From Antedon mediterranea (Eukaryota > Animalia > Echinodermata), in the NCBI RefSeq assembly GCF_964355755.1, contig NC_092676.1:25748871-25812870 (forward strand): a DNA stretch of 64,000 bases, read 5' to 3'. The notes beneath the pieces were generated by a model. It ran no database searches and was not told the origin of the DNA. It worked only from the letters and a program-made list of their open reading frames with translations. The position numbers were made by a program, and so were the translations under genes. Shown here piece after piece: positions 11,055 through 64,000 of the stretch. Within the stretch, counting starts at the first letter, position 1. The number at the start of each line of letters is the position of its first letter.

Positions 11055-14000
11055 ATGGCTAGTTCCATTTTTGACCACGGTCTAGTGTGGTTGTCAACAC
11101 AAATCTGTGAAGAGGATGAGCTTGACTGTTTGCGATTTATTGGATCTTCTGTTTTGGTTAACCAATTCAAAGCGAAAGCAATAAACGTTTTTCAGAGTTT
11201 ACAACATCAACAGTTTCTTTCTGAAACAGACTTTGCTATTCTATATGACGCATTGCAATACATGGGGCGTAATGACTTACAAAAAGCTTTCTTAAAAAAA
11301 ATAGGCAAACAGAAGCCAAAACAAAAATCTCAATTAGTTTCCTCGTTCACAATAATGCTTATAAATGTTTGTAAAAACATTGATCCTTTTAAAGATAGAT
11401 GGGAAACTTTTTTGTTTATGTACAAAAAGAAATGTCCTCAAATCAATCATAATAAAAGTATATACTGCACCCTACAATGCCTCTTGGATAGCAATGTCTT
11501 GAAAAATGACAAAAAAAACCTAAAAAAATGTTGTGAATATCTGGAAACTGTGAACTTGAATAAAGCCAAGACGTATGTTGAGAAATACTGTAAGTAGAGT
11601 ATTTGTTGTTTGTTAATGCCAAACCTCTTATACATTAATGGCCACACTTTGAAAAGCCTGTTCTTCCTATTCTAATTAGTGCGTTTGGTATCTCTTATGC
11701 GGCCATTCCCCATAAGCGGATGGATGTGTCCAAAATTATTCACAGCAGTCGCTAATGTCTGCGACGTACAGTATTAGCCAATGTGTTGCTAAACAACAGT
11801 TAATTAGTAATTTTTTCAAACCATGAACTGATTGATTTTATTTGGTAACCGTATCAATCACATACATAAAATAACAACAGTACAAAATCATTACCAAGGA
11901 TGGTACATAAAACGCCCTGTGACACTTATTTCATAATCATGTTTTTATTGTTACCAAATTTACCAAACTTGTTAAAAAACAAGGCCAACACAACAGCCAT
12001 AAGTCGCGTGCTCTCAGAAAAAATGAACTTTCAAAAAGTAATGTACTTTAAAACTTTTCTGTACATCAAAACAATTCAAAAGTACAGAAAAGCGATAAAA
12101 CGCATAGTGATACCGGACCGACAGACAGACCGACCGACCGACATAGTGAACTATAGAGTCGCGTCCACACGACTAATAAATGAAAATAAAGATAAATACT
12201 AGTAGGCCTACACCTGACGTTTTTAATAGGCCTGCTGTTGTTTTGTTTTCAGGGTTTGTGACAATAAATGACAGGATTCAGACTATGCAAATAGAAAAAG
12301 AAAATGGTTGTGACTATGTAATGATTTTGTCATTTGTACTGTGAAGAACATTCCTGTGTTTTTACTACACAGATTTTGACCAATCATTTTTATGCATAAA
12401 GCTTTAAAAATTTGTCTGAAAATCATAAATAATACTAAACCACCTGATCATAAACAATTTTAAAATGGAGAATGTAGAGCCCTGTTGCGTTAAGAATGCT
12501 GAAAAATATCGTTTGTAGCCATAATACATGATTTTAGCCCTCTATTAGCAAGAACCTCCTGTAAGCGGCCACTTGTGGTCCCAAGGGTGGCCGCTTTTAA
12601 ACCAAATAAAAATCAAATATATATTTGGTGTTGTGAAACTATGGATACTTACTCCATAACTGGGACTAGAAATGTATTATTTCTAGTCATTCTCCGTAAA
12701 CGGGTAAATGGCAACTTTATCAAAGTATCGTCAAAAAGTTAAGACGACAGAATTTCACTCGTAAGCTCCGCCCACTTTGTTAAAGCTCATGCATAAATTA
12801 TTCATGAGCACCGTCCTGTGGCTTCCTGTTTCATAAAGTTCCTATCAAATGATCAGAGACTGTTGTATTTCTGTGTTCTGTGATCACAGTGTATTAACCT
12901 TATACTTTTTTCAGTAAATGACAATTTCTCAAGAAGCACACATCCAGGCCTGACACATCATTCAAGGTAATTAAGCTTGCTTATCTATGGTATCTTCGAC
13001 AATGATTAATATTTGGTTTGGTTTATCATTCAATATTTCAAACTTTATTTGTTCATTTTCAGGAAGATGAACAAATAAAGTTTGAAATATTGAATCATCA
13101 TACAGTAAATGTGTCTAATTACCCAACTTTTTGTATAGTTTGTTTTGTTTTATAAAACAATAATAAATGTTTACATTTATTTGGTGACGAAAGTTTTCAG
13201 GCCAATGTTCAAACAGGTTCTGTTATTTTTAATGACCTTTCTCCTAGTTTAATATTTACTTATATTTTATTGCAGTATCGTAGCTACCACCTTCCATTGT
13301 TATATATTATTGTCATATAATTTTCTCTTCTGAATACTTTTAACTTCAGCCTTGCTGCTGTACAATCTGATGAAAATGTTGACGGTGAAGAATTGTCTGA
13401 TTCTTTGTCAAATCTTAATTCAGGTAATTATTAGTTTTCCCTTAAGACATGAAGTTGATCAATGATTTGAAAAGTTTATATAATCAGAGAAGTGTTTTTC
13501 CCATTATCATTTTATAAGTAATACAATCAACACCAAAAAAATGATCAAAGATTACACTTTTTTTCTCTTTTGAACTGAAGATTCTGACTTCCTTATCCAA
13601 CAGCATCATCAGCAGGATTTTCTGATCATCATCAGATCCATCATCAAATTTAAAAGTTTTTGTGTAAGACGTTATACATTATTGTCATATAATGTACAGT
13701 AATTACAACTACAATACAGCTGTAATGAGCTGCAATCCTAAAGTGCCTGGTGACCGACATGCGGCACAAACTAGTCCTTCAAATAAAAAAAAACCTGGAT
13801 GGTTGATAGATTGAATGATGGGAAGACAGAATTCTTTTTGATCTCATCACAGACAAATGAATTCTGTTCAGCACTTTAATCTTATGAATGGTGAATCTGT
13901 GCTTTGATCTTTGTAAATGCGCTTTATAAGTAACAAATAATAATATTAGTAAATTAATACTTTCAACTTCAGCCTTGTTTGTAGAATCTGATGGAAATTT

Positions 14001-17000
14001 TATTGAGGAATTGGCTTTATTTTTAATTCTGGTATAGTGTTTTTCTTCAAAGATGAGGTTGATGAAGCGAAAGATTTTGTTTTTACCATTTTATGTAACT
14101 TTTAAAAAACAAACCTAAAGATCAGAATCTTGTTTTCTCTTTTAAACTGAAGACTCTGACCTCAATGAGGATCCTCATTCCGCATCAGCATCATCAGAAG
14201 AAAGGGCTTCTGATTGTAACAATAGGCGTACTGAAAAGAAAAAGCCTAACAAATCTGGACCAAAGAGACATCAGAACTCCAAATGGGAGAAAAAACAAAA
14301 AAAGAAGTCAAAACGTAAGCAAATTTCTCAGGATCAGGAAAATGAAGGTACTGTAACTGTTTATATAAATAAATAAAGATGAGGTTTATGAAGCGAAAGA
14401 TTTTGTCTTTACCATTTCATGTAACTTTTAAAAAACAAAACTAAAGATCAGAATCTTGTTTTCTCTTTTAAACTGAAGACTCTGACCTCAATGAGGATCC
14501 TCATTCCGCATCAGCATCATCAGAAGAAAGGGCTTCTGATTGTAACAATAGGCGTACTGAAAAGAAAAAGCTTATCAAATCTAGACCAAAGAGACATCAG
14601 AACTCCAAATGGGAGAAAAAACAAAAAAAGAAGTCAAAACGTAAACAAATGTCTCAGGATCAGGAAAATGAAGGTACTGTAACTGTTTATATAAATAAAC
14701 TAGAAAGACACTCCGAGAGTGCATACCTCCGCCTACTGTAAAATTCTCCTACATAAGATTTCTCCGGTGAAAAAGAAATATATATATATATATATTTGTC
14801 TGTGTCTTAATGCTGTTTGTGATTTAGGCTAATTTCACTACAAGCATGTGTATGCGAGTTTGGTGTAATGGTTATGTAACAAGCCTTTCAATTAACAATA
14901 GCTTCAGTTGACTAACAATAGAACAGCAACGTGAAAATCAAACGAGTGAATTTGAAAAGAAATAGGTTTTTTAAACTACTCGCATAAAAAAAAAAACGAA
15001 AAAGTGGTCCAGAATTGGGACCATGGTCCTAAATGGTCCCAAAATTTAATAGAATGGTCCTTGACCACATATCTATCCGTATATTCATTTTGGTAAAGAT
15101 CTTGTAATTACTTTTTGAGTAATCCTGCTAACAAACAAACAAACAAACAAATGAAAGCACTCAGAAACTGAGTGAAGTACTTGGCAAAATATATCCACTG
15201 ACTCGGAGCATGTTAAAAGATACATTTTTTTTGCTTTAGGCATTAGCTTTATATTGTTAAAATCCTGCTGGGGTTAATAATTTGTTTAAATAATTTTTTG
15301 ATACAAACAATTTCGGCATTGCAACAATGACCTTTCTGAAATCAAGATTGACCAGAATAATGACCGAGGAGTGCCTTGAAGCTGTGCCGATTTGCGGCGC
15401 CTCTGCCTTAACCCATGTAGTAAGCTTAACCGCTTGACCAGTCGACTAATGTTTTGGTCCATATTAAAGAATATGTCCATGTTAAAAGAAGACAGAATGC
15501 GTGCTATTTAATATATCGTACGAAAGATATATCAATTTACCTGAAAATCAATAGGCTTGTTCTGTAAGTATATACCTATGTACAGAATGAAATAAGGAAG
15601 GACACACACTGGTATTAACAAAACTAATTATCAACTATCAATAGTTAAATTTGAATAACAATAGAACAGCAACGCCAAAAACAAACGGGTGAATTTAAAA
15701 AGAAACAGGTTTTTTAAAACTACCGTATATTTCGGTGTATAAGTCGCACCTGTGTATAAGACGCACCCCCTAACTGAGAGTAAAATATCGGTATTTTTTA
15801 TATCGTCGATGTATAAGACGCACCTTATTTTTCATCAAAACAATGTTTTTTTAAATTGTAATCAATATTATTGTAATAATATATTTTGTTATATCTACAA
15901 CGGCGTCCTTTATTTAGGTTTTTTCATACCTAGGCTCGGCCGCGCCCAGCCTCAACAAGTTCTTTCTAACTTGTTATTCATGAGTTTCGCCGCAACATCG
16001 AGTGCATGATGACCGTGTGTGTAACACGTACGTGTGTGGGCTAGCCTCGCTCGATCATTTCGAGAGGGCGCACGTTTTCACGGACAATCGTATTCGATTA
16101 GTATCTATGTATCCGAGAAGTGTATACGCTAGGTCCATGCTATAATCAACTGGAGAATATACTAGTCGAATACCGTACACCATGTGGCCGCCAAGAAGGG
16201 TTTGCGCTAGGCTAGGGGTACGGCGGTCATGCGTATAACTATAAATACACCATGTGGCCACCAAGAAAGGGCTTGCGCTGGGGGTACGGCGATCGTGCGT
16301 ATAACTACTGTATAAATAAATACTATTCTAATCGTACGTAAACGTTTACAAATGAAATTTTATGGGAGCGCCATAATGAACAAATCTTTTCATCATATTT
16401 AGTATAACATCATGCTAAAATGCCTTGAAAACTAGGCAGAAGCAGGTTGCCGTTACGTTAGTTCGTTACTGTAGCTAGGCCTAGCCTAGCAGTAGCAAAC
16501 GAGGTGACGATAGCATAGGCCTATGTACAATCTGTGTGGTGAGGCATTTATGTTCGGTGTATAAGACGCACCCTTAATTTAGAGGTCAAATTTGCGTGTC
16601 AAAAGTGCGACTTATACACCGAAATATACGGTACTCGTATGAAAAAGCCGGTACATTGAATCAACTTTTGTTTTAAAATTACAAATCACAAATTATAACC
16701 CTTGCCTCTTGTCCAAAAATGAGGTTTTTTGGACAAGTACTGTAGTTCTCGAGAAAATGTAATTTCAGTTTACGTGTTACTTTAAAACTGCTCACCGGCT
16801 TTTGAAAATTGTCTCCTATCTTGTAACACTAGCCGGTCTGAAAATAATATCATTTTTGTTATTTGTGAAGTTATTAATAAACCAATGTTGTTGATTTTCA
16901 ATAGGCATGGTCTGAAAGTATAAACCTATCTACACCCAAAAATTCAGAACGATAACTTGAAAACAAACAAACAAACATACATACAAACATACATACACAC

Positions 17001-17531
17001 AAACAAACAAAGTGAATACTATACTTGGCAAAATTCTTTTTGCCAAGTAACAAACAAACAAACACACGCTACCGATTACATATACCTCCTTGGCGGAGGT
17101 AAATAATAAATAAATTATTGGTAAAACTGTTAACTTGTTACACTACTGTATCTTATGAACCAAACACTTTTTTATTCAGTAAAATTGGTTTAGAACCTTC
17201 CTACTGCAGTTTCCTAGAAACAAATGGTTATTAGGTTGTTAAAATTTGTTTGTTTTTTTTTGTTGCAGATAATTGGTTTTTTCTTTCTGTACTAATTCCT
17301 GTGATTCTGGTCATCCTTTCAATAGTATTGTATGGAATATACCATTATTTTGATATTAATGTGTGTAAACTGTTTACATTCTCAGGCCAATGTACAACAT
17401 CATGTGTGTTTCTTCTTATTTTAATTTTTTATGGTGGTTTGAAGTGGATTAATAATGATGAGCTAAATTTTATACAGTTTTGTACAATAGCTTATAACAT
17501 TTGTAAGGATTTAACTAATTGTTTTAATTAA
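11055..17531 (+). CDS. Gene A: tandem-DED + linker + 2-TM membrane protein, about 455 aa (437 aa without the tentative exon). Exons 11055-11589, 12253-12306 (tentative), 12915-12966, 13350-13423, 14153-14347, 14479-14673, 17269-17531
   Basis: The DED-DED exon has ELDCLRFI, ALQYMGRNDL and a second DED starting VSSFTIMLINV. All listed junctions are GT-AG and phase-compatible. The terminal exon is hydrophobic (WFFLSVLIPVILVILSIVLYGIYHYF; CVFLLILIFYGGLKW). Exon structure parallels gene B. Confidence 0.75.
11977..12178 (+). mobile_element. Helentron/DINE-like short element; related copy on the minus strand at about 41915-42035
   Basis: aacaaggcc start, (GACC/GACA)n microsatellite, 3' hairpin agtcgcgtccacacgact; the 41915-42035 segment is its reverse-complement relative. 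Confidence 0.6.
14049..14700 (+). repeat. 326-bp tandem duplication carrying a 195-nt Lys-rich coding exon
   Basis: Near-identical units with a 326-bp offset (exons at 14153 and 14479). Confidence 0.95.
14698..17102 (+). mobile_element. Helentron-associated (HINE-like) element with nested insertions, in the last intron of gene A
   Basis: Subterminal tacctccgcc near 14725; 3' hairpin tacctccttggcggaggta near 17083-17101; (AAAC)n microsatellite. A second similar element at about 15150-17050 (tacttggcaaaa...ttttgccaagta) sits inside it. Confidence 0.65.
15723..16631. mobile_element. Tc1/mariner (pogo/Tigger-like) MITE with TA TSD
   Basis: TIR ccgtatatttcggtgtataagtcgcac, perfectly inverted at about 16605-16631 and flanked by TA on both sides. 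The empty-site equivalent (ttttaaactactcg) is visible near 14970. Confidence 0.9.
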
Positions 17532-19795: not shown

Positions 19796-22700
19796 GGGGG
19801 GGGGGGTTCGAAACTAGAGACCCGAGACCAGAGACCCGAGACCCAATACGAAAAGGGAGACCGCACTATACGAAAAGGGAGACCCAAAATGTACGAAAAG
19901 GGAGACCCCAAATATACGAAAAGGGAGACCCAAATATACGAAAAGGGAGACCCAAATATACGAAAACAGAGACCCAAATATACGAAAAGGGAGACCCAAA
20001 TATACGAAAAGGGAGACCCAAATATACGAAAAGGGAGACCCAAATATACGAAAATGGAAACCTAAAATATACAGTTATTACGTCGGCCCAGAGCCGCCTT
20101 AACTGTAAAAACTCAAAACCAAAGTTTTGTTCACAGTCAGTGTTTTAGGTCGGCCGAGGGTCGCCTTTCGAACGTTCACAACAGTTGTTTTCCGCCGAAC
20201 TCGCAGGCAGGCAGCTCGCTTGGCATGCTGGGAAGGGGATATTCTCAAAACACAATATAGTTGACCCTATGAAGGCGACCCGAACAATTTCAATCATTAT
20301 CCAATATGACACATTACACAGAGCAGATGTTATAAACATCTGTATTATTTAATATACAGCCGAGAATGTTACATTCTATTTTTACTTCTTTCGCATTAAT
20401 TAATATTTACATTTTATAAAAATAGATGGGAACACAAAAGATTGAAATATATATCATTATTTCCTATTGACAGTCGATTCTCTAAACTTTCATCAATGCA
20501 ACAACGTACTCCCGCCCTGGCTAGTATCTGGGCTAGTAATTATATACAAGGCCCTTGTTGCCCTTACTATAAGGAAGCGGCGCGAGTGATTTTATTTTAC
20601 TAGGATGGGTAGGAGGAGAGTTTGCAGGCTTATTTACACAGCGTTAAAAGCTTCACTGTATCAATGGATACAATATGTACACTTGTAATAGAGAAGGTAG
20701 AGTCGGTGGTGGAGTTTGTCTATATTTAAAAGAACAAATCAACACCGTAACACGTGATGATTTTGTATTTAATGATAACTCCATTGATTCACTTTTTCTA
20801 GAAATAATAAACACAAACGGCAAAAATACTATTGTAGGTATGTTGTATCGACCACCAAATTCAAACGTCAACTCATTTAACTCTGATCTGGAAGAAATCT
20901 TACATAAACTTAATCGCGAAAACAAAAACTGCTATATCTTAGGAGATTTTAATCAAGACTTATTAAAATATGACATTCAAAAAACAACACAGGAATTCAC
21001 AAACATTATTTACTCAACATCTTTTAATCCATTAATCAACTTACCCACCAGAATAACATCGTCTTCTGCTACAATTTTAGATAATATTATTACAAATGAT
21101 GATAACATTTCGCATTGTGGAGTAATAGTCACTGACATTACCGATCATCTACCCATTTTCATGACAACACACTTGTCATTAAATACTAACACACAAGCTC
21201 CAATTACAAAACAAAAAATAATTAATGATACAACATTAAATAACTTGCTTATTGCTATTTCTAATGAGGATTGGGGTGAACTATATTTATGCACAGATAC
21301 CAATACATCATATAACCTATTTATTAAAAAACTATCCAATCTCATAGATAATAACATACCTACAAAAAGTAATAAGCCAAATGGTAATACAAAGAAAAAA
21401 CCATGGATCACAACAGGAATTTTGATTTCAATAAAAAAGAAAAATAAACTTTATAAAAAATACCTTAAAAACCCAACACAATTATTAAAAAATATATATA
21501 AAAAGTACAAAAATAAATTAACTCATTTAATTAGAATTCGGAAAAAAACAATATTATTCCAAAAAACTGGATGCAGCTCGACACGATTCAAAGCAAACAT
21601 GGAAAGTTTTAAATGAAGTTCTAAATAGAAAAAAATCGAGTGTTAAGCCAAATGAGGTAATTAACCATAGTAATAAAACTTTGGTATGTGATCCAAAAGG
21701 TATGTCTGACGCTTTTAATGACTTCTTCTCCAACATTGGAAATGAATTAGCAAACAAAATACCGAATGTAAACAATTCTGACTTTAAACAATATATGAAA
21801 GAGAGTCAATCCCAATCCATATTTTTCAATCCTACGAATGAAGAAGAGGTCATTGAAATAGTTAGTCAAATCAAAAATTCAAATTCAGAAGGTGTTGATA
21901 ACTTAAGTAATCGCATTCTAAAACATATTATTGCTGCTGTGGCATCTCCTCTTGTACATATCTTTAACCTCTCTCTTGAGACAGGCATGGTCCCTGATAG
22001 TATGAAAGTAGCTAGAGTAGTTCCAATTTTTAAATCTGGCAATAAAAGTGACGTCAGTAATTATAGGCCGATCTCTATTCTGCCTACCGCTTCAAAAATT
22101 CTTGAAAAAATTGTTCAAATTAGAGTAAATAATTATATCACAAAGTTTAACATCCTTAATAATGCACAATATGGTTTCAGAAAAAACAGTTCTACTTTTA
22201 TGGCCGTTATAGATCTGGTTGAACGAATAACCGATGCGCTTGATAAGAAAAAAAATACCATCGGAATATTTATTGATTTGTCAAAAGCGTTTGACACCAT
22301 CAACCATGATATACTTCTTAAAAACACTATGGCATAAGAGGCACGGCCCTTAAATGGTTTAGAAACTATATTAGTGGAAGGAAACAATTTACGTCTATTG
22401 ATAACACAAGTTCGTGTTTGATGGATATAAATTGCGGTGTACCACAGGGTTCAATTCTGGGGCCTCTACTTTTTATTTTGTACATTAACGATGTATTTAA
22501 TTGCTCAAACTCGTTATCTTTTGTTTTATTTGCTGACGACACAAACATATCTGCATCTCACGAAAACTTGGATACGCTCATAGAACTAGTTAATGGTGAA
22601 CTAAAAAATGTTTCGGATTGGTTCATGTGCAATAAACTATCAATCAACGTTAAAAAAACTAATTACATAATTTTCCGCAATCAGCGAAATCCAAGTAATT

Positions 22701-24497
22701 TAGAGAATGTAAATATTTATGTCAACAATAAAAGAATAGATAGAGTTAAATCGACTAAATTCCTTGGAGTACATATTGATGAATTTCTCACATATAAGAA
22801 CCACATCAATGTTACAGCTAGGAAAATATCTCGATATGTAGGCATACTATATAAAGTAAGACATTTTTTACCAACCTATGCTCTCTGGACAATATACAAA
22901 TCACTCATTGAACCAGTATTAAATTATTGCAACATAATATGGTGTAGCACATTTCCAAGTTATTTAGATGAGTTATTTAAACTCCAGAAAAGGGCATTAC
23001 GAGCTATAACATGGTCAAAGTTTAATGATTCAATGACTGAATGTTTCTATAAATTTAAACTTCTTAAAATTGCGGATATCAATAAGTACCAAATTGGGCT
23101 TTTCATGTATAATGTTACTACTAATCAGGACGTGCGTTTTTCCTCGCTCTTTATTAAAAATGGTTCTTACCATAATTATAATACAAGATCTAAAGACAAA
23201 ATGAGACTCAGAAAACGTAATCGTACTTCTACTAGTTTTACTGTGTCATGTGTGGGACCCAAATTGTGGAATGACTTGAATTACGAACTACAAAGTACCA
23301 AATCAATATATATATTTAAATCATTGTTTAAAGAACATTTATTATCATTTTACAAATAATTTTAAAAATTATACTTGTTGCAGGATTTAGCTTTTTTATT
23401 ATTTATGTTTTAGTTTTTTAGGCTAGTTAGGGACATAGGGGGACACAACTAATCAAGCTCTTTTGAGTTTTTATGTGTTTCCTTTTCATCTTTTTATGTT
23501 CTCATATATTGTTGTTGTATATTTTCATGATAGAGGATGAATAAAGAATATTTGAATTTGAACATATATAAATAAATCCAGGCTATTACTCAATGTTTTT
23601 TTACATCAAGTTTCTTCTTTAATATGATTTGTGAAAATATGTTTTCAATCAATACAATCAATCAATTCATTATGAATCAATGTACACTTATGTGGATAAT
23701 GAAACAATGTAAAATTATAATTTTAATGGTAATGATATAATGATTAGTAACGAGAGAATAAATACTTTCACCCGAACCATAAAAAATCCACCCTGGCTAC
23801 GGGCCTGAATTGGCTGTCGGACATAACAAAGTTTAAACTTGATTGCGCTCTAAAAAAAGAAATGAATATATTAAAAAACGATAGGCCTATTCAATACATA
23901 AAAAAAACCTCATATGCTCAAACTATAAGTAAGCTCGCAACCTATTCTCATAAATTCAAAATTCTCATTCTGATAAAATACGCAAAATTCATGAAATGTT
24001 GCGCAACTGTAAACAGCATCATGGTAATATTTTGTTTGTAAGTTTTTGTGAAAAGCGATACACCAAAATGGCAGAAACCCTTCTGACAATAACGCCACGA
24101 GCAGATAACCAGAAAGTTAAAAAAAACATTAAATTGACGTATTTAAGTTATCGAACATTTGGGTCTCCCTTTTCGTATATTTGGGTCTCCCTTTTCGTAT
24201 ATTTGGATCTCCTTTTTCGTATATTTGGGGTCTCCCTTTTCGTATTTTGGGTCTCCCTTTTCGTATATTTGGGTCTCCCTTTTCGTATATTTGGGTCTCC
24301 CTTTTCGTATATTTGGGTCTCCCTTTTCGTATATTTGGGTCTCCCTTTTCGTATATTTGGGGTCTCCCTTTTCGTATATTTGGGGTCTCCCTTTTCGTAT
24401 ATTTGGGGTCTCCCTTTTCGTATAGTGGGGTCTCCCTTTTCGTATAGGGTCTCGGGTCTCTGGTCTCTAGTCTCGGGTCTCTAGTTTCGAAACACCC
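19796..24497. mobile_element. Long copy of the 22-bp-unit foldback/MULE-like element (9-bp TSD), containing a LINE
   Basis: Arms (gggagacccaaatatacgaaaa)n at 19805-20070, inverted at 24155-24497; TSD aaaataggg at 19787-19795 and 24498-24506; same termini as the element at 5333-5713. Confidence 0.85.
20650..23562 (+). mobile_element. 5'-truncated CR1/L2-group (Crack-like) LINE; ORF2 (APE endonuclease + RT) with two frameshifts
   Basis: GGGVCLY, YRPP, GDFN, LDNI/TDHLP (endonuclease); NYRPISIL, DLSKAFDT, GVPQGSILGP, LFADDT (RT); frame breaks near 21545 and 22320; tail aataaagaatatttgaatttgaa. Confidence 0.95.
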
Positions 24498-30643: not shown

Positions 30644-33600
30644 ATGGTCAATCCTGTTTTCAGCAATGCTCTTGTGTACTTATCAAACAACATTGTAAAA
30701 GAAGAAGAGCTTGACACTTTGAGATTTATTTCATCATCTGTTTTGAAGAATAACTGTTTCAGCAAGACTACAAATGAAATATTTTGTCTTTTGGAAAACC
30801 AGTGCATTCTCCCAGATGAATTTTCTATTATCTGTGACGCACTACAGTCAATGGGAAGATTAGATTTGAAAAATGGTTTCTTAAAACAAATTGGCAAACA
30901 AGAACAAATTGGCAAACAACATTCTCAATTGATTTCCCCTTTTACAAGAATGCTCATCAATGTTCGGAGCACCATTCCCATTTCTAAAGAATGGGACAAT
31001 TTTATTTATTTGTACAGCCATGAAGAGAGAGGAGCTGGAATTAAAGAGCAAAATGTGAAGGGAAGTGTGTATAAAAGTCTGCAGTACCTCTTGGATAAAG
31101 ATATCCTCAGCAATGATAAAGTTAATTTAAAAAAGTTTCAAGAAAATCTGGGAATTTCTGAGTTAATAATGGCCAAGAATTGTCTTGATGCTTATTGTAA
31201 GCTTTTATGTTGTGATTCTTATAATTTCTTCGTTAAAAAAGCTCTGGTTTTCATTGATTGACATAATCACTAAACATTTGTATTGGTAGTTCATAATCTT
31301 ATTTAATCATAAAACTCCTTCTACAAAAAGGATAAGTTATTTTCAAAGAAAGCATACAAATTTTATGTATTGATGTATTGTCCCTTGAAACACAAAAAAA
31401 TGAAGGTCAAAATATACTAATTTTAATTGGCCATATCAAAGTAATATTAAAGTTATTCACTTTAAGTTGAAAATTCGAGCCAAAAACAACAATTTTATGT
31501 AATTAACAGCTAAATTAATTTGATTACATTTCGTCTGGAAAATAGTCACGAGCGAAAGTAAACAAAGATTTCAAACCATAAGTATACATTATGCATGATG
31601 CTAATTAGGATTGTTTACAACTCGTCATGGTTGAGAAGATGTTTTCACACAGATCGCGAGGAAGTTTTATGATTATGCATACAGAGTAGCCAAATAAGCG
31701 CATTGCGTTATAAGATATGTTTTGATCGAAAACTTTGACTGGAAGTCAAAGTTATTTTTTGAACCAAAAAACGTCTGTATTTCAGTTAAATGATTTTTTT
31801 TTTGACTAATTTTTGGTGAAAGTTATTAACTATTATGATACTTCAAAATCACCCACCTTTTTTCGAAATCTTTTTATTTTTATTTTTTTGGAATTTGACA
31901 AAGGGACAATACATCTTTAATATTTGCGTAGAAAATTATCATTTTTTTGAAATTTATTTTCAGTAAAAAAGAATCCAAATCTTCCAGAAAGCCAACATTC
32001 AAGTTTAAGGTAAATAAATAATCCCATATTAGTCGCATTCCCTACAATATGTTGACGTGTTGTAAAAACAATGCACTAAATTATGATAGAAAGAGAGAAA
32101 CAATGCACTACTTAATGCGTTGAATGGGGTCAATCGTTGACTGTCCTCTCATGGGCGGTCTTTATTTTTACATTAAATGTAGTTTGTGACTTTACATTAG
32201 ATCTAAAAAACATAGGGAATAAGACTTTAACTAATTGTATTTTGAAGCAGGATGAACAATGCAGTTTTACTGCTTTTAAAAAACAAATTCATTAAAATAT
32301 AATTTTTTAAATGTAACAATTTAAAATATATGAATATTTATCCAGTAAAACAACTTAGTCTGATATTTCTTGTGATGATAGATTTTTCTAATTGTTTTTC
32401 TCACACATTTTTTTAAACTTCAGCCCTGTTGATGCACAAACTGATGGACAAGTTGGCAACGAAACATCTATGTCTGCAAATGTTAACCCAGGTATTTAAC
32501 ATTTTAATGATTATTATTTATATATCTAACATTAGCAAATTATATGTCATGCAGTTGTTTCTTTGTCTTTTTTCTGTTTAGGGGTTGGTATAAGACACGT
32601 TCTTTTACTTCTATTTCTGATCCCTGAAACAACTCCTATGTATTGTTACCATATAACTTATTGTTCTTTCTTTCTTTCTTTCTTTATTTACCCATAAATA
32701 TAAATTATAAACATTGTAATAATATACAAATAAAAATAATTATATCAAGGGAAGGGCTAAAAAATAGTTAAAACTAATCAAGTTCAGCCCCTAAACATTG
32801 AAGTATAAATAGTTATATAAATAAATTAGGGCTACTTGTCTAAAATAAAATTAATATACATAAACATTTTTTTTTTTTTAAATACACTTTCTCTCAAATA
32901 TATACAATATAATTAATTCTCTTATAAAATAAATAAATATCATTATACAAACAAATAGTATGTTTTCATTTCTTTTTTGAATTTGCTTTTTGTTAGAAAC
33001 CTTAAATCATCCGGGATTTCATTCCAGAGCTTTGCACCAGAATACTTGATGGAATGTTGTCCTATGTTTGTTCTATATTTTGGTACATACAACTTTTCTC
33101 TAGTCTGAGACCTTGATGAATAACGAAAATTAATATACAAAAAATATTTAGGAGTTGTATCTGGAAATTTACCATGTAAACTATCATGAACAAATAAAGT
33201 AATTAAATACTGATGCTGCTGATAAATATTTAAAATTTTAAGTTCTTTGAATAATAATGATGTTGGTGCTAGTCTATCAGAATAAGTCAATGTGCGTATA
33301 ATACGTTTTTGTGTTAAATATACTGGTTTTAAATGAGTTTTATAAGTGTTACCCCAAGCTTCTAATGCAAATGAAATATGAGGCAAAATAAAACAATTAT
33401 ATAAAAGCACCAAAATTGATTGGGGTACAACATATTTAAGTTTGTACAATAAACCAGCCTTAGAACTAATGATTTTATTAACCTTATTAGAATGCACTTT
33501 CCATGTAAGTCTATTATCTATATCTACCCCAATGTAAGTTGTAGCTTCAACTTCATCTAATTTTGATTCCTTTATGTATATATCCCCCTTTACTTCAATT

Positions 33601-36600
33601 ATTGTATGCTGATTACGAAATATAATATAATTTGTCTTTTTAGAATTAATTGTCAACTTATTAACATCACACCAATCTACTATATGTTTCAACTGCTCAT
33701 TTACATTTGTTGGGTCAACAATTTCATGAGGATTAAAAGAACAAAATAAACTAGTATCATCTGCAAATAATCGTGTATCAAAAAAGTCAGAAGAGTTTAC
33801 AATATCATTTACATAAATAAGAAACAATGTAGGTCCTAAGACCGACCCTTGTGGTACTCCACAAGTTATTGAATTCTCATTAGACTCTATTCCATTTACA
33901 CTGATACATTGCTTCCCATTATATAAATAATTTTTAAATAAAGCTAATGGCAACCCTCTTATCCCATATGCACTTAACTTATCCAGTAGTATTTGATGAT
34001 TGACTGTATCGAATGCTTTCTTTAGATCTAAAAATATTCCAACAACTATGTTTCCCTTATCTAATTTCTCAGACAAATTTTGTACTAACTCAATAATAGC
34101 AAGTTTTGTGCTGTACCCTTCTCTAAATCCATACTGTTGATGATATAATAAATCAAATTTACTTAAATAACATAAAAGTTGCTTATTTATAATTTTCTCA
34201 AATACTTTACTAAATTGTGGCAATACAGATATTGGTCTGTAATTCCCTGGATCTGATGGCAGACCCTTTTTAAATAATGGAAATACCTTTGCTTTTTTTA
34301 AGTCATCAGGGAAGATCCCTGTAGATAGTGACAAATTAATTATATACTGTACGTAAAAGGTCTAGATATATAATCTGCTGCATATATAATTAATTTAGGA
34401 TTAATTTGGTCCAAGCCTACAGCTTTATTCTTATCTAAACCCTTTAAGATATCATTTACTTCTTCATCAACAACATAATTGAAAAATAATGAATTCTGGG
34501 GTACAGTTGATAAATATATATTATGATTTACATTTGTGTTATCAATACATTCTTCTGCAAGATTTTTTCCAATTGAAACAAAATAATCGTTAAAACCATT
34601 AATTATTGCTGTTTGATTAGTTTCTATATTAACATTGCCATCACATGATTTAATTTCTAATTTATTAGGTAATTTCATTTTCTTCTTACCTCTTCCTAAA
34701 ATATCATTAATAATTTCCCATATTTTATTTGTATTACCACACTTTTCTTCAAATTGATCTGAGTAATATTTCTGTTTTGCTGTTCTTAAGGTGTTTGTAA
34801 GACAATTTCGATATCGTTTATACTTTGCTAACATATCTACATTGTAATTACTTTTTATTACCTTTGAAAATAACCTATGTTTATGCTTAATTGATTTTTT
34901 TATACTAGAATTAATCCATGGTTTCTTTAGTTTCTTTCTTGGGTTAACAGTTTTTAAAACTAATGGTGCATGTTTATTACAAACTTCTAGAAATAACCTT
35001 TTAAACTCTGTGTAAGCAGAATTTACCTCTTGACTATCAAATACTTCAGACCAATTTACATTCATAAGATCATGTTGGAAGTGTTGGATATTAAACTTGG
35101 AAAATTTTCTAAATTTGATTTGATCAGTCTGTTGGAAGTAGTCATTAAAGTTCTCTAACATACAAAAAGTAGCCAAATGGTCTGATATATCTAATTCTAT
35201 GGTTCCTGAAGTTAAAAATCTAGAATGGATATTTGTATATACATGATCAATTGTTGTTCTTGAACTACTGGTTATTCGTGTATATACATTAATAAGTTGT
35301 ATAAAGTTTAAGCAAGACAAGCTATTTTTTAGACTTAAAGCATCTGCAGCATTTAAATTACTTGCATTAATATTAAAATCCCCAATTAATATGCATTCAG
35401 TACCTTGTTGTTTAATATTTGCAAGTGACAATTCTAGGCTTTCAATAAATTCCTCAACGTTTGTATTTGGTTGCCTATATAAAACTCCAACTATGAGGGA
35501 TTTATTTTGACCAACATCTATTTCTAGCCATAAAGACTCAGAATGATGTACATTATAATCAATAGCCGTATAATTAATTGAATCATGTATGTACGCTCCT
35601 ACTCCACCTCCTCTTTGATTAATACGACATTTAGTTTCCAACGAGTAATTATTCATTTTAAACAAATCCTTGTTTGTAACTTGCCACACTTCCGACAAGG
35701 CTATAATTTTAAATTTACTTTGAACCAATTCCTCATAAAATAATTTAAATTCTTCAAAGTTCTTGTTAAGCGATCTAATATTAATGTGAGATACTGAAAA
35801 CACTGATTGAGATTTATTATCAAAAAAATTACAAAATTCAGATGACGAATATGTCTTACAGCTATTATGTAATTGATAATCTAGATTTTGGTTAGCCATT
35901 AAAACCATATAAATATATATTTAAGTACAGAAAAACTATTAGCATTATTATACAATTTTACCAATATCATCTTCACTATTAATAACAATCAACATTGAAC
36001 CCTGTTGTTTGCGTACATAGATGCGCCCATTGTATGTCCACAAATATTTATAGTTCTTTGTCTTCCTTATATCGTTTATTTTTCCCATAAGACTACGTTT
36101 CTTTTGAGTTAAGTTTTCATTAACATATATGTGGTTTTTACCTGTGTATCCAAGCATATCAGTAGTTGTATTCCTAATCTTTTTCCTGTCATTATATACT
36201 TGATCACGCTTCTTTCTGCTGCAAAATTTGACAATTATTGGTCTGTCTGTTCTATCTCGATTACCAATCCTATGTGACGCCTCGATGTCCTCTTTTTTTA
36301 TACTACTGTCGATTTCCTTTAGAACTTTCAGTGCAATATCTTCAGTATTTTCATTTGCAATTTGTGATATACCTCTTATTTCAATATTCTCTCGTCTGCT
36401 ATACTGATTCTGTTCATCCTGCTCTTTCTCTAATTTCTCCACTCTTCTCGTAAGATCTTCGTTATCTTCTTTCAGTTGTTTATTTTCTTGCTCAATGCTT
36501 TTCATCTTAACACAGTTTTCTTCAATTAGTTTGTTAAAGAATTCCATGGAAGAGACTGGGTATAAACTTGACTTGGTCTTTTATATCAGATAGTTGTTTC

Positions 36601-39528
36601 AAAACTGCATCTGTTGGAACATCATCTGCCGAGTCTTCATCTCCAACTATTAACACCTCATCCTCTTTCCCTTTTCCTTTAACGGTCTTAGGTCTAGGCA
36701 TCCTTGTTTGTTGTATAGCCTATTCCCACGTGTACTCTTGCTCACCTCACTCAGCTAGTCACTAGAGTGAACACTGCCTGGCTAGTAGCTTCCGGTTTGT
36801 GGCCTAGGCCTAGCTTTTGGATAACGTGTTAACATCAGATTCAAACCAAACCAGGTGCTAATTTTACAGAATCCCAACATAAATAAGATATAAATGACAC
36901 TTAACCACAAATTCTGTTTATAAAATAATTAAAACCGGATAATTTTGGAGCCCTTGAGAGAGCAAAATCCTAAATATCCACATGGTCCAAAACGCCCTCA
37001 AATGTAAATGTATGCTTGTTTTTTTTTTGGACTGTTTCAAATAAATGTAAATGAAATGAAATGAATGGAAGAAAGTGTACACTGAATGAAGTAAAGAAAG
37101 AATGTGCAATAAGTATGCGGTATCTCTCATTTTCTTACACTGGAGCACATCAGTTCAGAATTGAATGGATCCAGATTATCAATTTTGTCTTCTTTTCTAC
37201 TGTCATTTTTACTTTTTTTTTATAAAAGAATATAAATATATGTTCAATTTTTATTTTGATTTGTGTAAAACCTTATTTAATTTTAAATGCGATAACATTT
37301 GTAAAATCAATGAATGCAAATAATTTATGGCACAGAGAAGTGAATCTCTAAACATTTAGGATTTTATTTTCACAGAAAGCATACAAATCATGCTTAAAAT
37401 TTGCCTAGAAAGTTTTTCTGATGTTTTTTTTAAATGGTGTTTTTATTTTAGTGCAAAACAATCAAAATCTTCCTGAAAGAAGAACCAGCCAGCTTTCAAG
37501 TTCAAGGTAAATAAATAATTTAACTAATTATAACATTGTATTTTGGAGCAGGATAAACAATGCACTTTTACTGCAAATTCATTAATACACTTTTTTTAAG
37601 GTACATATAAAAATATTACCAATTAAACAACCTATGCCTAGTCTGATATATGTCGTGATAAAAAATATATGTATTTAAATAGAATGAGATAATGATTTTT
37701 TATAATTATATGGAGGCCACCCAGCTTAATTTTTAACTAGCATCCTGTTTTTTTACAGTTATACATTTAATTTTCTTTTCTACAAAATGATTTTAACTTC
37801 AGCTCTGTTGATGCACAAACTGATGGACAAGTTGGCAATGAAACGCCTGTGTCTGCAAATGTTAACCCAGGTATTTAATATTTTTAATGGAAGAGTTTAC
37901 ACTGAATGAAGTGAAGAAAGAGTATATACAGTACATAGATAACCATTCAATTATTTTTATTTATTTGTTGAAATTAAACCTTAATTTAATTTTAAATTAA
38001 ATTTCAATTAATGAAAACAATTTATGGCACTGGCAACAAGTGTTTTTTTCTTTCTCATTTCATATTAAAAATAACAAACAAAACTAATAGAGATTATAAA
38101 AATGTCATTTGTTTTTTTAAGATGATGTTTTTGATGATCTTCAGCCTGCAGCAACAGAAGTTGATTCTGATAATGCTACTGACATCAAACAAACGAATGC
38201 ATCAACAAGAGGGAAAAAAGATATGGTAAAATGGGGAAAAAAAGGTAAAACAACTAAATGTAAATCATATTTGCCCAACAGAGGGGCCATGCATTCAAAG
38301 CACAATATCATTTTTAATGGGCTGGGTGGGGAAAAGGATCCAGAGGCTTGTAAAAATACATTAATTTTGTTATGTTTGTTTCTGAAGGATTAACAATATT
38401 GGTAACAGCTGGATATACAACAGATATATTGGCCCTTGAAAAAAATATTTTTTTGTGAATAGGCCATTTTAATATCATATAATAGTTTGACAGAAAAATT
38501 GAATTAAATAAATATATTTATTTACTGTACCTGGTAAGTCCGTAAATTTTAATTTTTTAATTAGTCAACCGGAAACACATTGTCAATGGGTTTTTGATTT
38601 TGTCTTATATATAAGCAAAATTATTTTTTTGCAAAAGCGAATTACAAATTGGATTTTTCAAAGTTTTCATACATCTTTATTGGTTCATGTTTTTGAGAGA
38701 AAACATACTATTTAATGTTTTTTTTCCTATTTCAGAATTCCTGTGGTCGTTATTTGTGGCACTGATTGTCCTTGTAGCATGGTCATACCATTACTTTCAA
38801 GCTGCGCAAACATTACACTATGGTAAATGAAACATAGACCCACCTATCATTTTAGTATTATGGTGAATTAAATAAGACCCCATAATACATACAGTATCAT
38901 GTTGTTTTGCTAATTTAATATTAATTCAGTACTTTATTAGAATGTATTGTTTATTTTACCAGCAAGTAAATACTATAGTAATGCTTCCTAAGATTAAACT
39001 TTCCACAAATAAACAATACAATATTTGAAAAATCTGACATAAGATTTGGTTATGGCTATATTGTCAAACAAATAACAATATGTGCTGCTACAACTTACAA
39101 GAACCAAATACTAAAATATTTCCTTTGTTTTTTCTATTTCAGGAATCTCATGGTTATTAATTTCTGGATCTCTAGTGGCTTTGATTGCCCATTTCATAGC
39201 ATTGACATTTGGTTTCCTTCAGGAGGCTAAACAATCAAATTATGGTAAATGCATTGTCTTCCTACCTTTCATCATCATCATGTTACTTGTATTAATTAAT
39301 TATTATGATGATGTATCTGGAATCCAAAAAGGAGGTTGCATTTCACTTCTTATATTCGTTGGTTCAATGTTTTTCCAATTTGTTAATCCAGTATCTAAGT
39401 TGGGAAAGGTTGGTTGTGTGTTTATAGTTATTATTTTATTTGCATTCACGATTTATGGTAAAGATGCCCTCAAATATGTAACACCCTTTAATGTTCTTTT
39501 TAACATATTAAAGTCAATTTTGGGCTAG
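30644..39528 (+). CDS. Gene B: tandem-DED + linker + about 5-TM protein, 461 aa. Exons 30644-31196, 31964-32009, 32424-32491, 37452-37506, 37803-37870, 38122-38244, 38736-38822, 39143-39528
   Basis: The DED-DED exon is clearly homologous to gene A (EELDTLRFISSSVL, ALQSMGRLDL, SQLISPFTRMLINV). All junctions are GT-AG and phase-compatible, summing to 1386 nt without internal stops. The terminal exons are strongly hydrophobic. Confidence 0.8.
31370..31920. mobile_element. MITE with (TTAAA)GATGTATTGTCCC termini; partial relatives near 1759, 41100-41392 and 49710
   Basis: gatgtattgtccctt at 31372 and aagggacaatacatctttaa at 31901-31920. Confidence 0.7.
32664..36800 (-). mobile_element. Near full-length CR1/L2-group LINE, antisense in intron 3 of gene B: ORF1 (36701-35948, one frameshift) and ORF2 (35908-32943, one frameshift)
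   Basis: ORF1 has a coiled coil plus QYSRRENIEIRGI, RPIIVKF, IYVNENLT and YKYLWTYNGRIYVRK. ORF2 has HINIRSL, LSEVW, GDFN, SDHL, DLKKAFDTV, GVPQGSVLGP and LFADDT. 3' tail is aataa(aaag)n. Confidence 0.95.
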
Positions 39529-46884: not shown

Positions 46885-49132
46885 ATGGCAGACCAAAGAA
46901 GCAAGTTTGACGATTTGAAATTTGAACTTGGTCAGAAGTATGATGGTAAAGAATACAAGAAACTGAAGTTTTGTCTCTTTGATTATTTACCACTAGGAAC
47001 CCTTACCAATAAACATTCCAATGGAAATACTTTATTCAATGCACTTGATGTCATTAGAGGCAAAGGTGTTATCTCACCTAATGATGTCAGCCTTCTTTTA
47101 GAAATTACAATGCTAACAGGTCCAGTGGATGCCCAAGCACTTGTAGAAGAGTATATAAAAGCTAATCGTAACTATATTCACAATGCAAAGGAAAATAAAT
47201 TGTCGCCATATAGGAGACACCTTTTTAAGGCTGTGGAAATAGCTAAACCAACTGCGTTAACAAATGTTGTCGATAACTATGGATTGAGACAATATGAATA
47301 CAAAAATTTGTGGGATGCCATATTTGAACTGGAAAGTGACACAGTTTTAGCAGATGAACCAGATAAAATTAAGAAATTTGCAAAATATCTTGGAAAGAAA
47401 TCACAGGATGAACTACAAAAAATACAGAGTATGGGTAAATATTTTAGATATACTTTCTGAATTCATAAAATGTACAATTTATTTTGTTTTTTACATAATA
47501 TCCTCTTTGACAGTCATTTTACTTAAGTTATACTTATGATAAAAAGGAAATATTTTCCATTAATTATATTGATTTGTGGAAATAAACTTGCATTTGATTT
47601 GAAATTTACAATAACAATAAATAATATAATTAAAAAAAATGTTTTTTTGTTTTATTAACATTGGAAACAGAACTAAAATTAATGAAAAATCAAAACTTTT
47701 TTTTTTTTTTTAGGTGAAGTTCCTGAACTTTACGAGGATTCTCGTTCCACAGAAAAATCAAAAAGAAAGCTAAAACAGAGAAAACATGAGAAAAAAGATG
47801 AACAGAAAGTGGATGATAAGTCAGAAGACGCAAAACTTCAACAGGCTCAGGAGAATAAAGGTACGAGCATTTTGTATAAGGAAGACAAAATATATAATGA
47901 AGATAACATTGATGATATAGGCCTACAGTATCTTTATTGATGAACCCATAATTATTATTTGCAGGATCATGTTCATTGAATAAAATTTATTTTAGAACAG
48001 TAGGTAGTATTCTAGAATATTTTTATTATTCTACAGTCAATCTTTCAACTCATGAAAATATTCTTTATTCAGAATACTGTATCTAGACCAGGGAGTTGTA
48101 TTTTTAACAACAACTGTATAGACTATGTTGTTGAACAAAAAACAATGCTACAATTTACAGATTATAATGTTTTTGTTTTTGTTTTTTCAATTTCAGGAAT
48201 ATCAAGGACAGCAGCAATCATTTTAGTTGCTGTGATTGCTGCTTCGATATCATATCTTGCATTACAAGGTAAATGAAATTAATGTTTTTGCTGGGTGTAC
48301 ACATGAAATGTTTATCCTTTCTAAAAATCGCAGTATTTGAAAAAGTTATTCAGAATAAATCAAAGTTACGGTTTTTTTCTTTTTTTTTACAGGAATTCTA
48401 TTGTGGTCAGTAATCATTTCTGTAATAATAGTTGCTCTGATTGCTGTTTTTATAGTGTGGAAATTTGATTACATTAAGGGTGCCATTACATCAAATCATG
48501 GTAAATGAAACATGGTATATTATCATTGATGGTTTAAAAAAAAAATGTTTATTAATTATTATTTAAGTTCTAAATTTGTTCATTCAGTAGCTCCAATTCA
48601 TATAGTGTGTGATGTTATTGTTTTATTTGTTTGAATGTTGGTTAATAAAGTTGCCATAAACATTTTTGGCATTTAGTGATTATAATGTTAATAGATAATT
48701 TTAACCACTGGCAAACAAGGTTTTTTTAAAGGCATTTTTTTATATTGTACTTAGTTTAAATTTTCATACACTAAAATATATGAAACAAATCCAGTTATGT
48801 GATGCTCATGATCAATTTTTTTTTTTTGTGTTTCAGAAATCGCATTTTTCATATCAGGATTAATAGTGGCTCTGGTCCCGCTTTTCATAGGATGGATTTT
48901 TTTTCCTTCAAAACATTCATTTGAAATACTAGCAGGTGTATTTTCTACCTTGATTTTCTATGATTTTTTTGTTTGGTGGTTGTGTTTAGGATTTGTTTTA
49001 CCGATTCCTAAAGTTTTACAAATAATAGCCATAGCTGTGGTTATTATCACTGTCCTAGTTGCTGTGGTGCTCTTTGGTAAAGATGTTTTTGATTTGTTGT
49101 CATTTAGGAGTATGCTTAGTGGTATCCTATAA
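46885..49132 (+). CDS. Gene C: divergent tandem-DED + charged linker + 5-6 TM protein, 390 aa. Exons 46885-47434, 47714-47860, 48197-48268, 48393-48500, 48837-49132
   Basis: DED-like KFDDLKFELG...LKFCLFD...LFNAL...ISPNDVSLLLEI, with a second unit starting LSPYRRHLF. All introns are phase-1 GT-AG, 1173 nt open. The C-terminus FGKDVFDLLSFRSMLSGIL matches gene B YGKDALKYVTPFNVLFNILKSILG. Confidence 0.8.
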
Positions 49133-52384: not shown

Positions 52385-54625
52385 CTACCTAACAACAATA
52401 GAGAAATTATTGCATTTGGTTCCATTGTTCAAAATCTGTTTTTTGAACGATGTTTTTGTTGATTCTTTGGTTAACTGAAACATCTTGTAGCTGAGCTTGC
52501 GACTATTGTGAGAAGTTATAAGCGTGAATCCTATGCTATCTAGTATTGCGATAAGATGGTCATGTGTCAAATAGCGTGAGTTGGTCACACAGGCAAGTGG
52601 TAGCACAATCTGAAATAAAGTGTGAAGATATTTTAGAATTTAACATTTTATGTAACAATTATACAAGCCATTGAAAATCTATTTATTTGGTGTTCCATGC
52701 CTAAGATAACCCCACTAAGTCCTTAGATTTGTTTCCAGTATGGTCCTTCTGGTGGTGAATTGGACAGTACATCCGAGAAGATCTCAAATCTTTTTGAAGA
52801 GTGTACTGCGCTCTTTAATGTGCTCACGAGCCATGAGTAATGGTTATACACAATATTAAAGTTTGCAAACATTGCAGTGATGGGTATAGCTCTCAATCCT
52901 CTCCCTCAAACGTTAAGTTACCATACTCAGGTTCTTCATTTCACCATTTTCAGGCCACTATTTCAAAATCCTGGATCTGCCACTGGTACTTACAATCAAA
53001 TATCCCATTTGTTTACAAACTTGTGCACATTTTTTAAGCATCTCTCCACGTCTATGAGGCATACCAACAAAGTTTAAAACAAGACTAAGAACAAGAACAT
53101 CATATACCTTACTTGACTTGACCTGCAGTGAAATACAATGAAAAGATGTTATTGGATAGCTAAAAATTGGGGTGTCCAAGGGTGCTAGTTTTGGTGTCTG
53201 CTTAAAATATACATATTGCTAGTTTTGTCAGCCATAGTTGTGATGTCCGACATTGATAGGGCTGTAGGGCCTACTACTGGGCTGGCATCCAATGCAAGGA
53301 GACTTTCCAAATTGTAAGTGCCCTTTTTGAATATTCACATGCACAATGCTTTCTGTGATTTCAATGGAATACACTACACTTTGTATGCAGACAACAATAA
53401 CATCTTGTATGTATTTATATATCATAGTTGGATAGATGTACTTACTTTTAGATCAAAAAAGTCAGCTTTGAGTATTCCCGGTTGACTGGGATTCAAATCA
53501 ATCGCAGTACTTTCAATCCATTTAAATTTTGTGTAGTTTAACTGCAATGCACCAACATCTAGTAATCTTAATTTCTATAAATAAAAAAACAGGTTTAAGT
53601 TAGGCCTACTTAAAAAGGAGAACCTGGAAATATTTCACATCATTGTCCTTATTTTTTCATTTCTACTGTTCCACATAAAATAAATAAAAGATCAAGAAAA
53701 ACATCTGGTTAAGTCTTTGTTTATGTGTGGAATCTCAAATAAGTTTCAAAAAAGAGCTTTAAGGCTGAGTTTCCAAATAACAATCATTTTTATATGATTG
53801 TTATGACTTACTGTTGGGGTCGATAACCTTATATTGTGTTCTTTCAACTGTCTCACTACCCACTTGGCAGAGTTTGTACTTCCATTCTTAAATTCACCTA
53901 ATCTTGAAGTAGCTTGGTATGTATCTATACCGCCGACCTTTTGAAGTAATAAAACATAATAGTACACAAATTTGAATTGTATAATTACAGTTGTGTGTCT
54001 ACTTGTTGAATACATTGATATGAATTGGTCTGAGAAAAGGCAGTTGGCACATCTGAAATGTCAGTGAGGAATCGCCCAATTTCATTACAATATATAACAA
54101 TATTCTGCTTTAGAGTGAATATTGGCTAGCATTACATCTAAAAGGTACTGAAAGTGCCTGTCTAGTCATGCCAGTTCCATGCATTGCAAGTGCTGAAACC
54201 AGGATCACAACTCCCTGCTGAAACTGATAGGGTTCTGTCAATCCTTCAGAATTACTGTACCTCTTGCAACTGTTTTGTGATCACCTTCATCTTCTGTTTC
54301 TTATTTATTTGTTTGTCTGTATCTGTCTTTAGTTTCTCAAGTTCTTTATTAAGGACATGAAATTGTGAAATCAGCTTGCAGTCTTTCTTTATGTTCTTCC
54401 TAGAAAATCAATAAATTATTATGAAATGGTTAAATAATTTGAATGTAGATGTTGCCGATGATCTTATCATTTGTTCATTCAGTCTTGAGATGTCATTCAA
54501 AGTCAGCCTACTTTTATTTTTAATCAAAGCAAAATATTTTCCGTATTGACTGTTATAAACTATGCCTACCGTTTATATTGTTGACCGTCATTTGTAACAG
54601 GTACACGATACTTTTTCTTCTTCAT
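52385..54625 (-). CDS. BMT2: Bmt2-family 25S/28S rRNA adenine-N1 methyltransferase, 267 aa. Exons 54625-54570, 54399-54261, 53937-53812, 53574-53446, 53122-52994, 52609-52385
   Basis: The spliced 804-nt ORF has ISQFHVLNK, GGIDTYQATS, NSAKW, LRLLDVGAL (SAM motif I), IDLNP, ADFF, LSLVLNFV...RGEML, VLPLACVTNSRY and NNFSIV, all recognisable Bmt2 motifs. Splice sites are canonical. Confidence 0.9.
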
Positions 54626-63612: not shown

Positions 63613-64000
63613 CTAAGAAATTATAATAATTGTAAATGATAATTGTTTTTTATATAACTATATAATGTGGGAAACGGAGTACTTGATTCGAACGTTTCAG
63701 AGATCTTTATCATCTGACTGCTTGTTGTTGACAAGCAGCCTGGTGACGCCATTGGTTGTTGATGATGACGTAATTGTATATTTTATTTAACACCTTTAAT
63801 TGATATTGTTAAATAATAAGAACAAATAAGTTGATCCGGAAATCAGAAAATAACAAATTCACCAGAGCCATTTACATTAAAAACTCTTCGAGTTTAATTG
63901 TAGACGTAAAGATGAACAAACGTTAAACGTATAATTATATCTTGTTGCTAAAACTTGGTTAATCCTTAAAAGGTTAAATGTCTTGAATGAAAACTTGTTG

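Follow-up and report, generated by a model that had tools for sequence, protein, structure and literature searches.

A predicted membrane-anchored tandem-DED gene of the crinoid Antedon mediterranea has a duplicated linker exon with candidate caspase-cleavage motifs

A 64-kb stretch of the genome of the crinoid Antedon mediterranea (64,000 nucleotides, nt, of contig NC_092676.1, assembly GCF_964355755.1; hereafter the window, with positions counted from its first letter) is AT-rich animal DNA with a GC content of 27% and contains three related genes, which we call A, B and C. Each opens with an exon encoding a pair of death effector domains (DEDs). Our subject is gene B, whose predicted model has 461 codons in eight exons, with an open frame and canonical splice sites, and whose parts follow one another as a tandem DED, a linker and five predicted transmembrane (TM) helices. 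Within the linker, a two-exon cassette that includes the motif AQTD/G (in protein motifs the slash marks the bond after the P1 Asp) is present twice. We tentatively suggest, with a confidence somewhat short of even, that gene B encodes a membrane-anchored member of a crinoid tandem-DED family, in which the duplicated exon would carry a caspase-cleavable tether site and the DED head would be cut off as negative feedback.

The exon-1 proteins of all three genes are divergent DED members. A profile of the three matches the caspase-8 prodomain across both DEDs (E 6.5e-5), and their individual Pfam DED scores, 24.9, 30.8 and 19.7 bits, compare with a curated cut-off of 35.9. The gene B pair, modelled from 34 sequences (predicted local distance difference test, pLDDT, 89; predicted template modelling score, pTM, 0.85), has a tandem DED fold that aligns with the DED assemblies of caspase-8 and cFLIP, reaching a template modelling score (TM-score) of 0.73 over 183 columns to 8ym5 at a Foldseek E value of only 5.7e-3 and a probability of 1.00. 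The fold is common to cFLIP-S, vFLIP MC159 and the caspase-8 prodomain (TM-scores 0.66-0.74), but those proteins are soluble and 12-19% identical, and gene B is without a caspase domain. An RxDL-like motif (PMC4558505) occurs in DED1 of A and B, whereas their relatives in the crinoid Anneissia lack the Asp of RxDL.

By hydropathy, B and C each have five TM helices and A has two. Seven Lys or Arg residues occupy the 20 positions before the first TM helix of B and none the 20 positions after it, and the protein has no N-terminal hydrophobic segment; on these grounds, the DED pair and the linker are predicted to be cytosolic. B and C have homologous TM regions (30% identity, E 5e-6 within the window). 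The TM region matches no known family or fold, the TM exons having no Pfam hit below E 0.3 and no usable Atlas hit. The last exon of gene B contains, at 39244-39252, a donor-like TATG/GTAAATG (exon/intron), which matches the donors of the other TM exons, and the last three helices may reflect read-through or alternative splicing.

A first-pass annotation of this DNA had noted that a 68-nt exon of gene B occurs twice within a duplicated cassette. This proved correct, and the duplicated unit is larger than described, comprising exon 2, an intron and exon 3. The two copies measure 46 + 68 (114) and 55 + 68 (123) nt, both multiples of 3, and because the cassette starts and ends in phase 1 the reading frame is preserved. 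Both 68-nt exons have AG/GT ends, and frame and splice sites are kept in both cassette copies, the indel in exon 2 being 9 nt long, despite an intron divergence of 14-28%. Exons 3a and 3b differ at 5/68 bases (3 non-synonymous, 2 synonymous), which is less than the divergence of the upstream intron (14/50, p 0.004). An assembly artefact was excluded: in DNA runs of one sample, possibly the assembly source, contigs extend from each unique flank into the shared core with no variant letters, and the read depth equals that of exon 1. The intron between the cassette copies houses a young long interspersed nuclear element (LINE) (Table 1), whose insertion, judging from the intron divergence, was preceded by the cassette duplication. 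Its read depth is about 19-fold that of single-copy sequence, near-identical copies exist elsewhere, relative to which the window copy has small indels, and a target-site duplication was looked for and not found. A second LINE lies on the sense strand at about 20648-23356.

The first-pass annotation had further proposed that caspases cut the linkers between the DEDs and the membrane part. The motifs on which it drew are in place: VDAQTD/GQV at 32428 and 37807 and TEVD/S at 38154 in gene B, AVQSD/E at 13357 and VESD/G at 13981 in gene A, and ELYED/S at 47725 in gene C. The VESD/G copy, described as frameshifted, has indeed lost 2 nt and contains an in-phase stop, so it is untranslated. Caspase-8 cuts BID at LQTD/G and prefers (I/L/V)ExD followed by a small residue. 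This consensus, to which the annotation had appealed, was found in 0/3 window genes, also with Q at P3, and in none of the Anneissia linkers. The suggested effector-caspase-like character fared better, the best motifs resembling caspase-3/6 sites such as TEVD193 and TETD23, caspase-6's own processing sites, which are cut by caspase-3 too (PMC5849602). Gly, Ser and Ala make up ~68% of the P1' residues in known caspase sites (PMC7225963), and an Asp followed by one of them occurs in the linkers of B (AQTD/G twice, TEVD/S), of A (ENVD/G) and of the Anneissia relatives (xEID/A, SETD/A, TQED/S, DQED/G). Motif enrichment was assessed by 20,000 shuffles per linker, each linker being reduced to one copy. 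Among the eight patterns tried, x[EQ][VTIS]D/[GSA], which was drawn from the gene B linker itself, was enriched in the one-copy B linker only (2 matches against a shuffle mean of 0.06, P 0.002). From the window alone, the case for caspase cleavage is weak.

A HMMER search over 1.84 billion representative sequences gave 68 hits, and a tree was built from 54 DED pairs: A, B and the 52 hits left after exclusion of the 16 with fewer than 130 matched positions. In this tree, A and B group with Anneissia japonica P0003 and P0004 at 100/99. Several TM helices were found in just 2/68 hits, gene C and Anneissia japonica P0003. P0003 and P0071 have the layout of gene B, with five TM helices and an exon-3-like unit repeated five to six times; the Anneissia RefSeq isoforms X1 and X2 differ in the number of units. 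A model of P0003 reached a pLDDT of 41, too poor for a fold search, and has the linker unstructured at this low confidence. After a first unit with TQED/S, the units start with xEID/A (three times), PEIE/A and SETD/A, and P0004 carries DQED/G, a motif of the DxxD type. According to these data, a matching exon-3 unit was amplified separately in Anneissia. Both the architecture and the proposed cut between DEDs and membrane receive moderate independent support from the Anneissia co-orthologue. The comparison of the three window genes, set out below, fails.

Table 1. Features of the window, with gene B first (positions counted from the first letter of the window)
Feature	Position	Strand	Description
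Gene B exon 1	30644..31196	+	tandem DED, 184 aa, phase-1 end; Pfam DED E 2.5e-5, under curated cut-off
Gene B exon 2a, 46 nt	31964..32009	+	cassette copy 1, first half; AG/GT ends, frame continuous; homologous to gene A exon 2
Gene B exon 3a, 68 nt	32424..32491	+	AQTD/G at 32434-32448, Asp207 of the model
Gene B exon 2b, 55 nt	37452..37506	+	in-frame 9-nt indel relative to exon 2a
Gene B exon 3b, 68 nt	37803..37870	+	second AQTD/G at 37813-37827, Asp248
Gene B exon 4	38122..38244	+	TEVD/S at 38154-38168, Asp278; basic stretch ahead of first TM helix
Gene B exon 5	38736..38822	+	first predicted TM helix (hydropathy); resembles other TM exons
Gene B last exon	39143..39528	+	four further predicted TM helices (hydropathy) and stop codon
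LINE retrotransposon, young, near full-length	32946..36980	-	in intron between cassette copies; open reading frame (ORF) 1 36580-35951, ORF2 35920-32946, frame broken near 34345
Gene A	11055..17531	+	tandem DED exon 11055-11589; exon 2 12915-12966; exon 3 13350-13423; TM exon 17269-17531
Gene A exon 3	13350-13423	+	VQSD/E, then ENVD/G at 13372, four residues on
Gene A dead exon-3 copy	13973-14031	+	2-nt loss and in-phase stop
Gene A Lys-rich exon, two copies	14153-14347, 14479-14673	+	twofold depth confirms doubling
Gene C	46885..49132	+	NLR-type DED pair; one Lys-rich linker exon 47714-47860 with ELYED/S; five predicted TM helices

The most serious alternative, a real possibility if a doubtful one, is that the linker is an acidic spacer grown neutrally through duplication of frame-compatible exons, with motifs arising by chance in D/E/S/G/A-rich sequence and any cuts being bystander cuts. 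A neutral spacer is hard to reconcile with the recurrence of the gene B pattern, set before the Anneissia sequences were examined, in the Anneissia co-orthologue, where it has 2 matches in isoform X2 (P 0.012) and 4 in X1; these matches share one origin, and counted once they give P 0.11, or 0.054 for xE[VTI]D. The same pattern was found in 0/39 other DED-pair proteins and DxxD/[GSA] in 2/39, the control segments (120 residues following the DEDs, with 10 of 49 proteins dropped because they had fewer than 60 residues there) including folded domains and being poorer in Asp than the linkers. Fisher tests without gene B gave 1/3 against 0/39 (p 0.071) for the gene B pattern and 2/3 against 2/39 (p 0.020) when a match to either pattern was counted. 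Also at odds with a neutral spacer, the exon-3 unit is duplicated in 3/4 genes of the clade, with differing unit boundaries.

The single-origin count, the make-up of the controls and the Fisher values already weigh against a maintained caspase site, as do the points that follow, the first of which speak at the same time for neutral growth. In none of the linkers is D/[GSA] enriched over the shuffles (A, 3 against 2.3, P 0.41; B, 3 against 2.3, P 0.41; C, 2 against 0.7, P 0.15), and most caspase substrates are bystanders (PMC7225963). Duplication is not confined to the motif exon, since motif-free exons such as the Lys-rich linker exon of gene A and the TM exons are duplicated too, and the second exon-3 copy of gene A has decayed. 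The sites of A, B and C are out of register. On DNA alignment, ELYED/S of gene C, which lies in another exon, corresponds to a Pro-blocked LNED/P in A and to VFDD/L in B; the Asp of TEVD in gene B is Ala in gene A; and VQSD/E of gene A, although in register with AQTD/G, has an unfavourable Glu at P1'. The patterns (I/L/V)[EQ]xD/[GSA] and DxxD/[GSA] occur in 0/3 window genes. Between the two copies in gene B, the divergence of exon 3 is not significantly lower than that of exon 2 (8/46, p 0.13) or of the inner intron (23/167, p 0.19), and chance alone would leave a 15-nt motif untouched in 27% of cases (P 0.27), so the motif shows no significant excess of conservation. Gene C, the sole annotated member in Antedon mediterranea, lacks homologues of both exon 2 and exon 3; the protein collections searched yielded gene C and neither A nor B; and none of the 30 looked-up sequences among the 68 hits is a crinoid caspase-8.

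Conservation of the P4-P1' residues relative to the linker across the clade, sampled with four genes only, gave p 0.02-0.11, in a register that depends on the alignment. One alignment puts Asp or Glu followed by Gly, Ser or Ala into one column near the unit start for 10/10 exon-3 units; another splits the units between two Asp columns, the register shifting with the settings; and Q-x-D is aligned across all genes in 3/4 alignment settings. In known caspase sites, conservation is stronger at the P1 Asp than at the other positions (PMC7225963). All in all, the comparison with Anneissia lends moderate support to exon 3 holding a maintained, shifting caspase site.

Paralogues outside the window were sought in protein collections. 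Among the 483 candidates of a word-index search with gene B exon 1, 0/483 gave a longer sequence; a search of this kind with the alignment returned only three Anneissia proteins and missed P0001, the database entry for gene C, which shows its low sensitivity; and one with gene C returned only gene C itself. One possible RNA run covered the repeats and covered no resolved unique exon bin of A or B, making it uninformative on expression.

If gene B works as a caspase-cleavable tether, its DED pair would enter DED filaments at the membrane, the partners being sensors tipped with DEDs, adaptors or an enzyme of the caspase-8 type. A caspase activated there, more likely of the effector type (caspase-3/6-like) than caspase-8, given that TEVD and TETD are caspase-6 sites also cut by caspase-3, would then cut at an Asp before Gly, Ser or Ala. 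The cut would detach the DED head and most likely switch the platform off, as caspase-3 does to MAVS. The duplication itself comes from the frame compatibility of the exons, and the extra copies would add redundant sites and length. Inheritance of the site from the linker of the caspase-8 prodomain is unsupported, as the sister group of the A/B clade consists of DED-pair proteins that lack a caspase domain (P0049, P0068). Among the other relatives, P0033 (Antedon) and P0039 (Anneissia) are FADD-like, with two DEDs and a Death domain, and P0033 has DFTD/G directly after the DEDs; both are candidate adaptor partners.

MAVS consists of a death-fold head (CARD), a long disordered linker and a single C-terminal membrane anchor, and has TRAF-binding motifs. 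Its order of parts is common to gene B. It differs in having a CARD and one helix in place of a DED pair and five predicted helices; the likeness proposed here is one of function. Motifs of the TRAF-binding forms PxQx[TS] and PxExx are absent from the linkers, bar a chance-level SSEE and STQE, which counts as a further point against the tether reading. MAVS has two caspase-3 sites, D429 and D490, and in D429A or D490A mutants active complexes accumulate (bioRxiv 10.1101/2025.02.25.640042). That MAVS, the closest layout, is turned off by cutting also speaks against cleavage being an on-switch, in which the membrane would keep the DED pair away from caspase-8 until a host caspase or a pathogen protease, by any cut in a long and variable bait linker, freed a filament-seeding or cFLIP-like fragment. 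We consider such a switch improbable, even though the linker is fast-evolving and repeatedly expanded, with Anneissia X1 and X2 differing in unit number, and the released piece would be folded like the caspase-8 prodomain and cFLIP.

Gene C bears on what the membrane part does. Its five-exon model is identical, letter for letter, to P0001, an uncharacterised Antedon mediterranea protein with two RefSeq accessions. The DED pair of gene C (46885-47434) groups with P0005 (an LRR protein), P0010 and the Antedon NLR P0006 at 99/99, far from A and B. In its linker exon and TM region, by contrast, gene C shares homology with A and B; it is therefore likely to represent an NLR-type DED head that an exon-1 swap has placed on the linker exon and TM module of the A/B type. 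Elsewhere, related DED pairs occur in fusion with NACHT-LRR, ROCO, kinase, NHL, ZU5 and GTPase domains. Both the homologous TM region of gene C, set under an NLR-like DED pair (P0006) without exon 3, and the appearance of related pairs on NACHT-LRR, ROCO, kinase, NHL and GTPase proteins would suit a membrane part acting as the effector, with the DED pair as a swappable receiver and the TM module clustered by DED filaments from an NLR or DED-tipped sensor, no cleavage being needed. We regard this as distinctly unlikely, because the TM part has no family or fold match, diverges fast and ranges from about two to five helices, features more in keeping with an anchor than with a pore. In three further relatives, P0056, P0060 and P0057, the order is kinase, DED pair, TM and MAM, a receptor-like arrangement with the DEDs between kinase and membrane.

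A silent or truncated relic, with the second cassette never joined to the DEDs, is a quite improbable reading of gene B: its absence from the protein collections in which gene C was found, the 4-kb antisense LINE between the copies and the 12 sense-strand AATAAA of that intron stand against 461 open codons in eight exons with canonical splice sites, a frame-keeping indel and a TM exon conserved with gene C, and AATAAA is common in DNA of 27% GC and the LINE is young.

Other described systems share parts of this arrangement with a caspase tether of the gene B kind. BAP31 (BCAP31), to which the first-pass annotation had likened these genes, spans the membrane several times and carries two identical caspase sites, AAVD/G at D164 and D238 (PMC2172754), and in being polytopic with two identical sites it does resemble gene B. 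The likeness breaks down in the layout, which is the opposite: BAP31 has its three helices at the N-terminus and a C-terminal coiled coil with a weak DED likeness (PMC2139787), and its sites flank a domain, whereas in B true DEDs come first and the sites are exon copies. BAR (BFAR, RNF47) is a membrane protein located in the endoplasmic reticulum (ER); its DED-like region, which depends on the TM part, binds both caspase-8 and -10 (PMC4021871). It is the nearest described idea among the known systems and differs in having RING, SAM and one DED-like region, while neither RING nor SAM is found in exon 1 of A, B and C or in P0001 and P0003. A multivalent LC8-binding linker was considered and rejected: the LC8 motif is built on a TQT-type anchor flanked at -1 and +1 by uncharged residues (PMC6607443), and AQT of gene B is not conserved, being QE (charged at +1) in Anneissia and QS in A.

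Some features of the locus concern gene A and its surroundings. A recent tandem duplication of 326 bp (14049-14699, 97% identical) doubles the Lys-rich linker exon of gene A; the exon copies differ by 4 non-synonymous and 1 synonymous change, and the acceptor lies 6 nt downstream of the B/C position. Two Death-domain exons, at 178-585 and 1377-1661 (Pfam E 8.5e-9 and 4.9e-7, above the cut-off), end genes upstream of gene A, which makes the window a cluster of death-fold genes. On the minus strand, 62733-63649 and 52388-52639 are exon-sized frames that resemble the ends of a 5'-nucleotidase and an rRNA methyltransferase.

Invertebrate DED fusions, such as DED-NACHT and TM-DED-TRADD-N, attest to lineage-specific shuffling of DEDs (PMC2575513, PMC8195603). 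Crinoid DED pairs have this shuffling onto many partners in common with them; they differ in that the available parts of those sources describe no N-terminal DED pair with a multi-pass C-terminal membrane region. Nor was a true tandem DED fused to such a region found described in full-text searches of openly available articles. A broader proposal, speculative and on balance unlikely, is that crinoids possess a new class of membrane-tethered death switches. In these, swappable DED-pair heads would sit on a five-helix module, the linker exon with the protease site would have multiplied separately in each of two feather-star families, and duplication and splicing would adjust how long the linker is and how many sites it holds, thereby setting the threshold for DED release or TM unmasking. 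If the amplified exon is not a tether, the genes would still make up a so far undescribed family of crinoid immune genes, in which exon shuffling has been at work and gene C shows an NLR-type head on the same membrane module. If it is a caspase tether, cut sites would have been multiplied in parallel in two lineages, and the family would offer, in a deuterostome group that has received little study, a counterpart of the MAVS off-switch built on DEDs.

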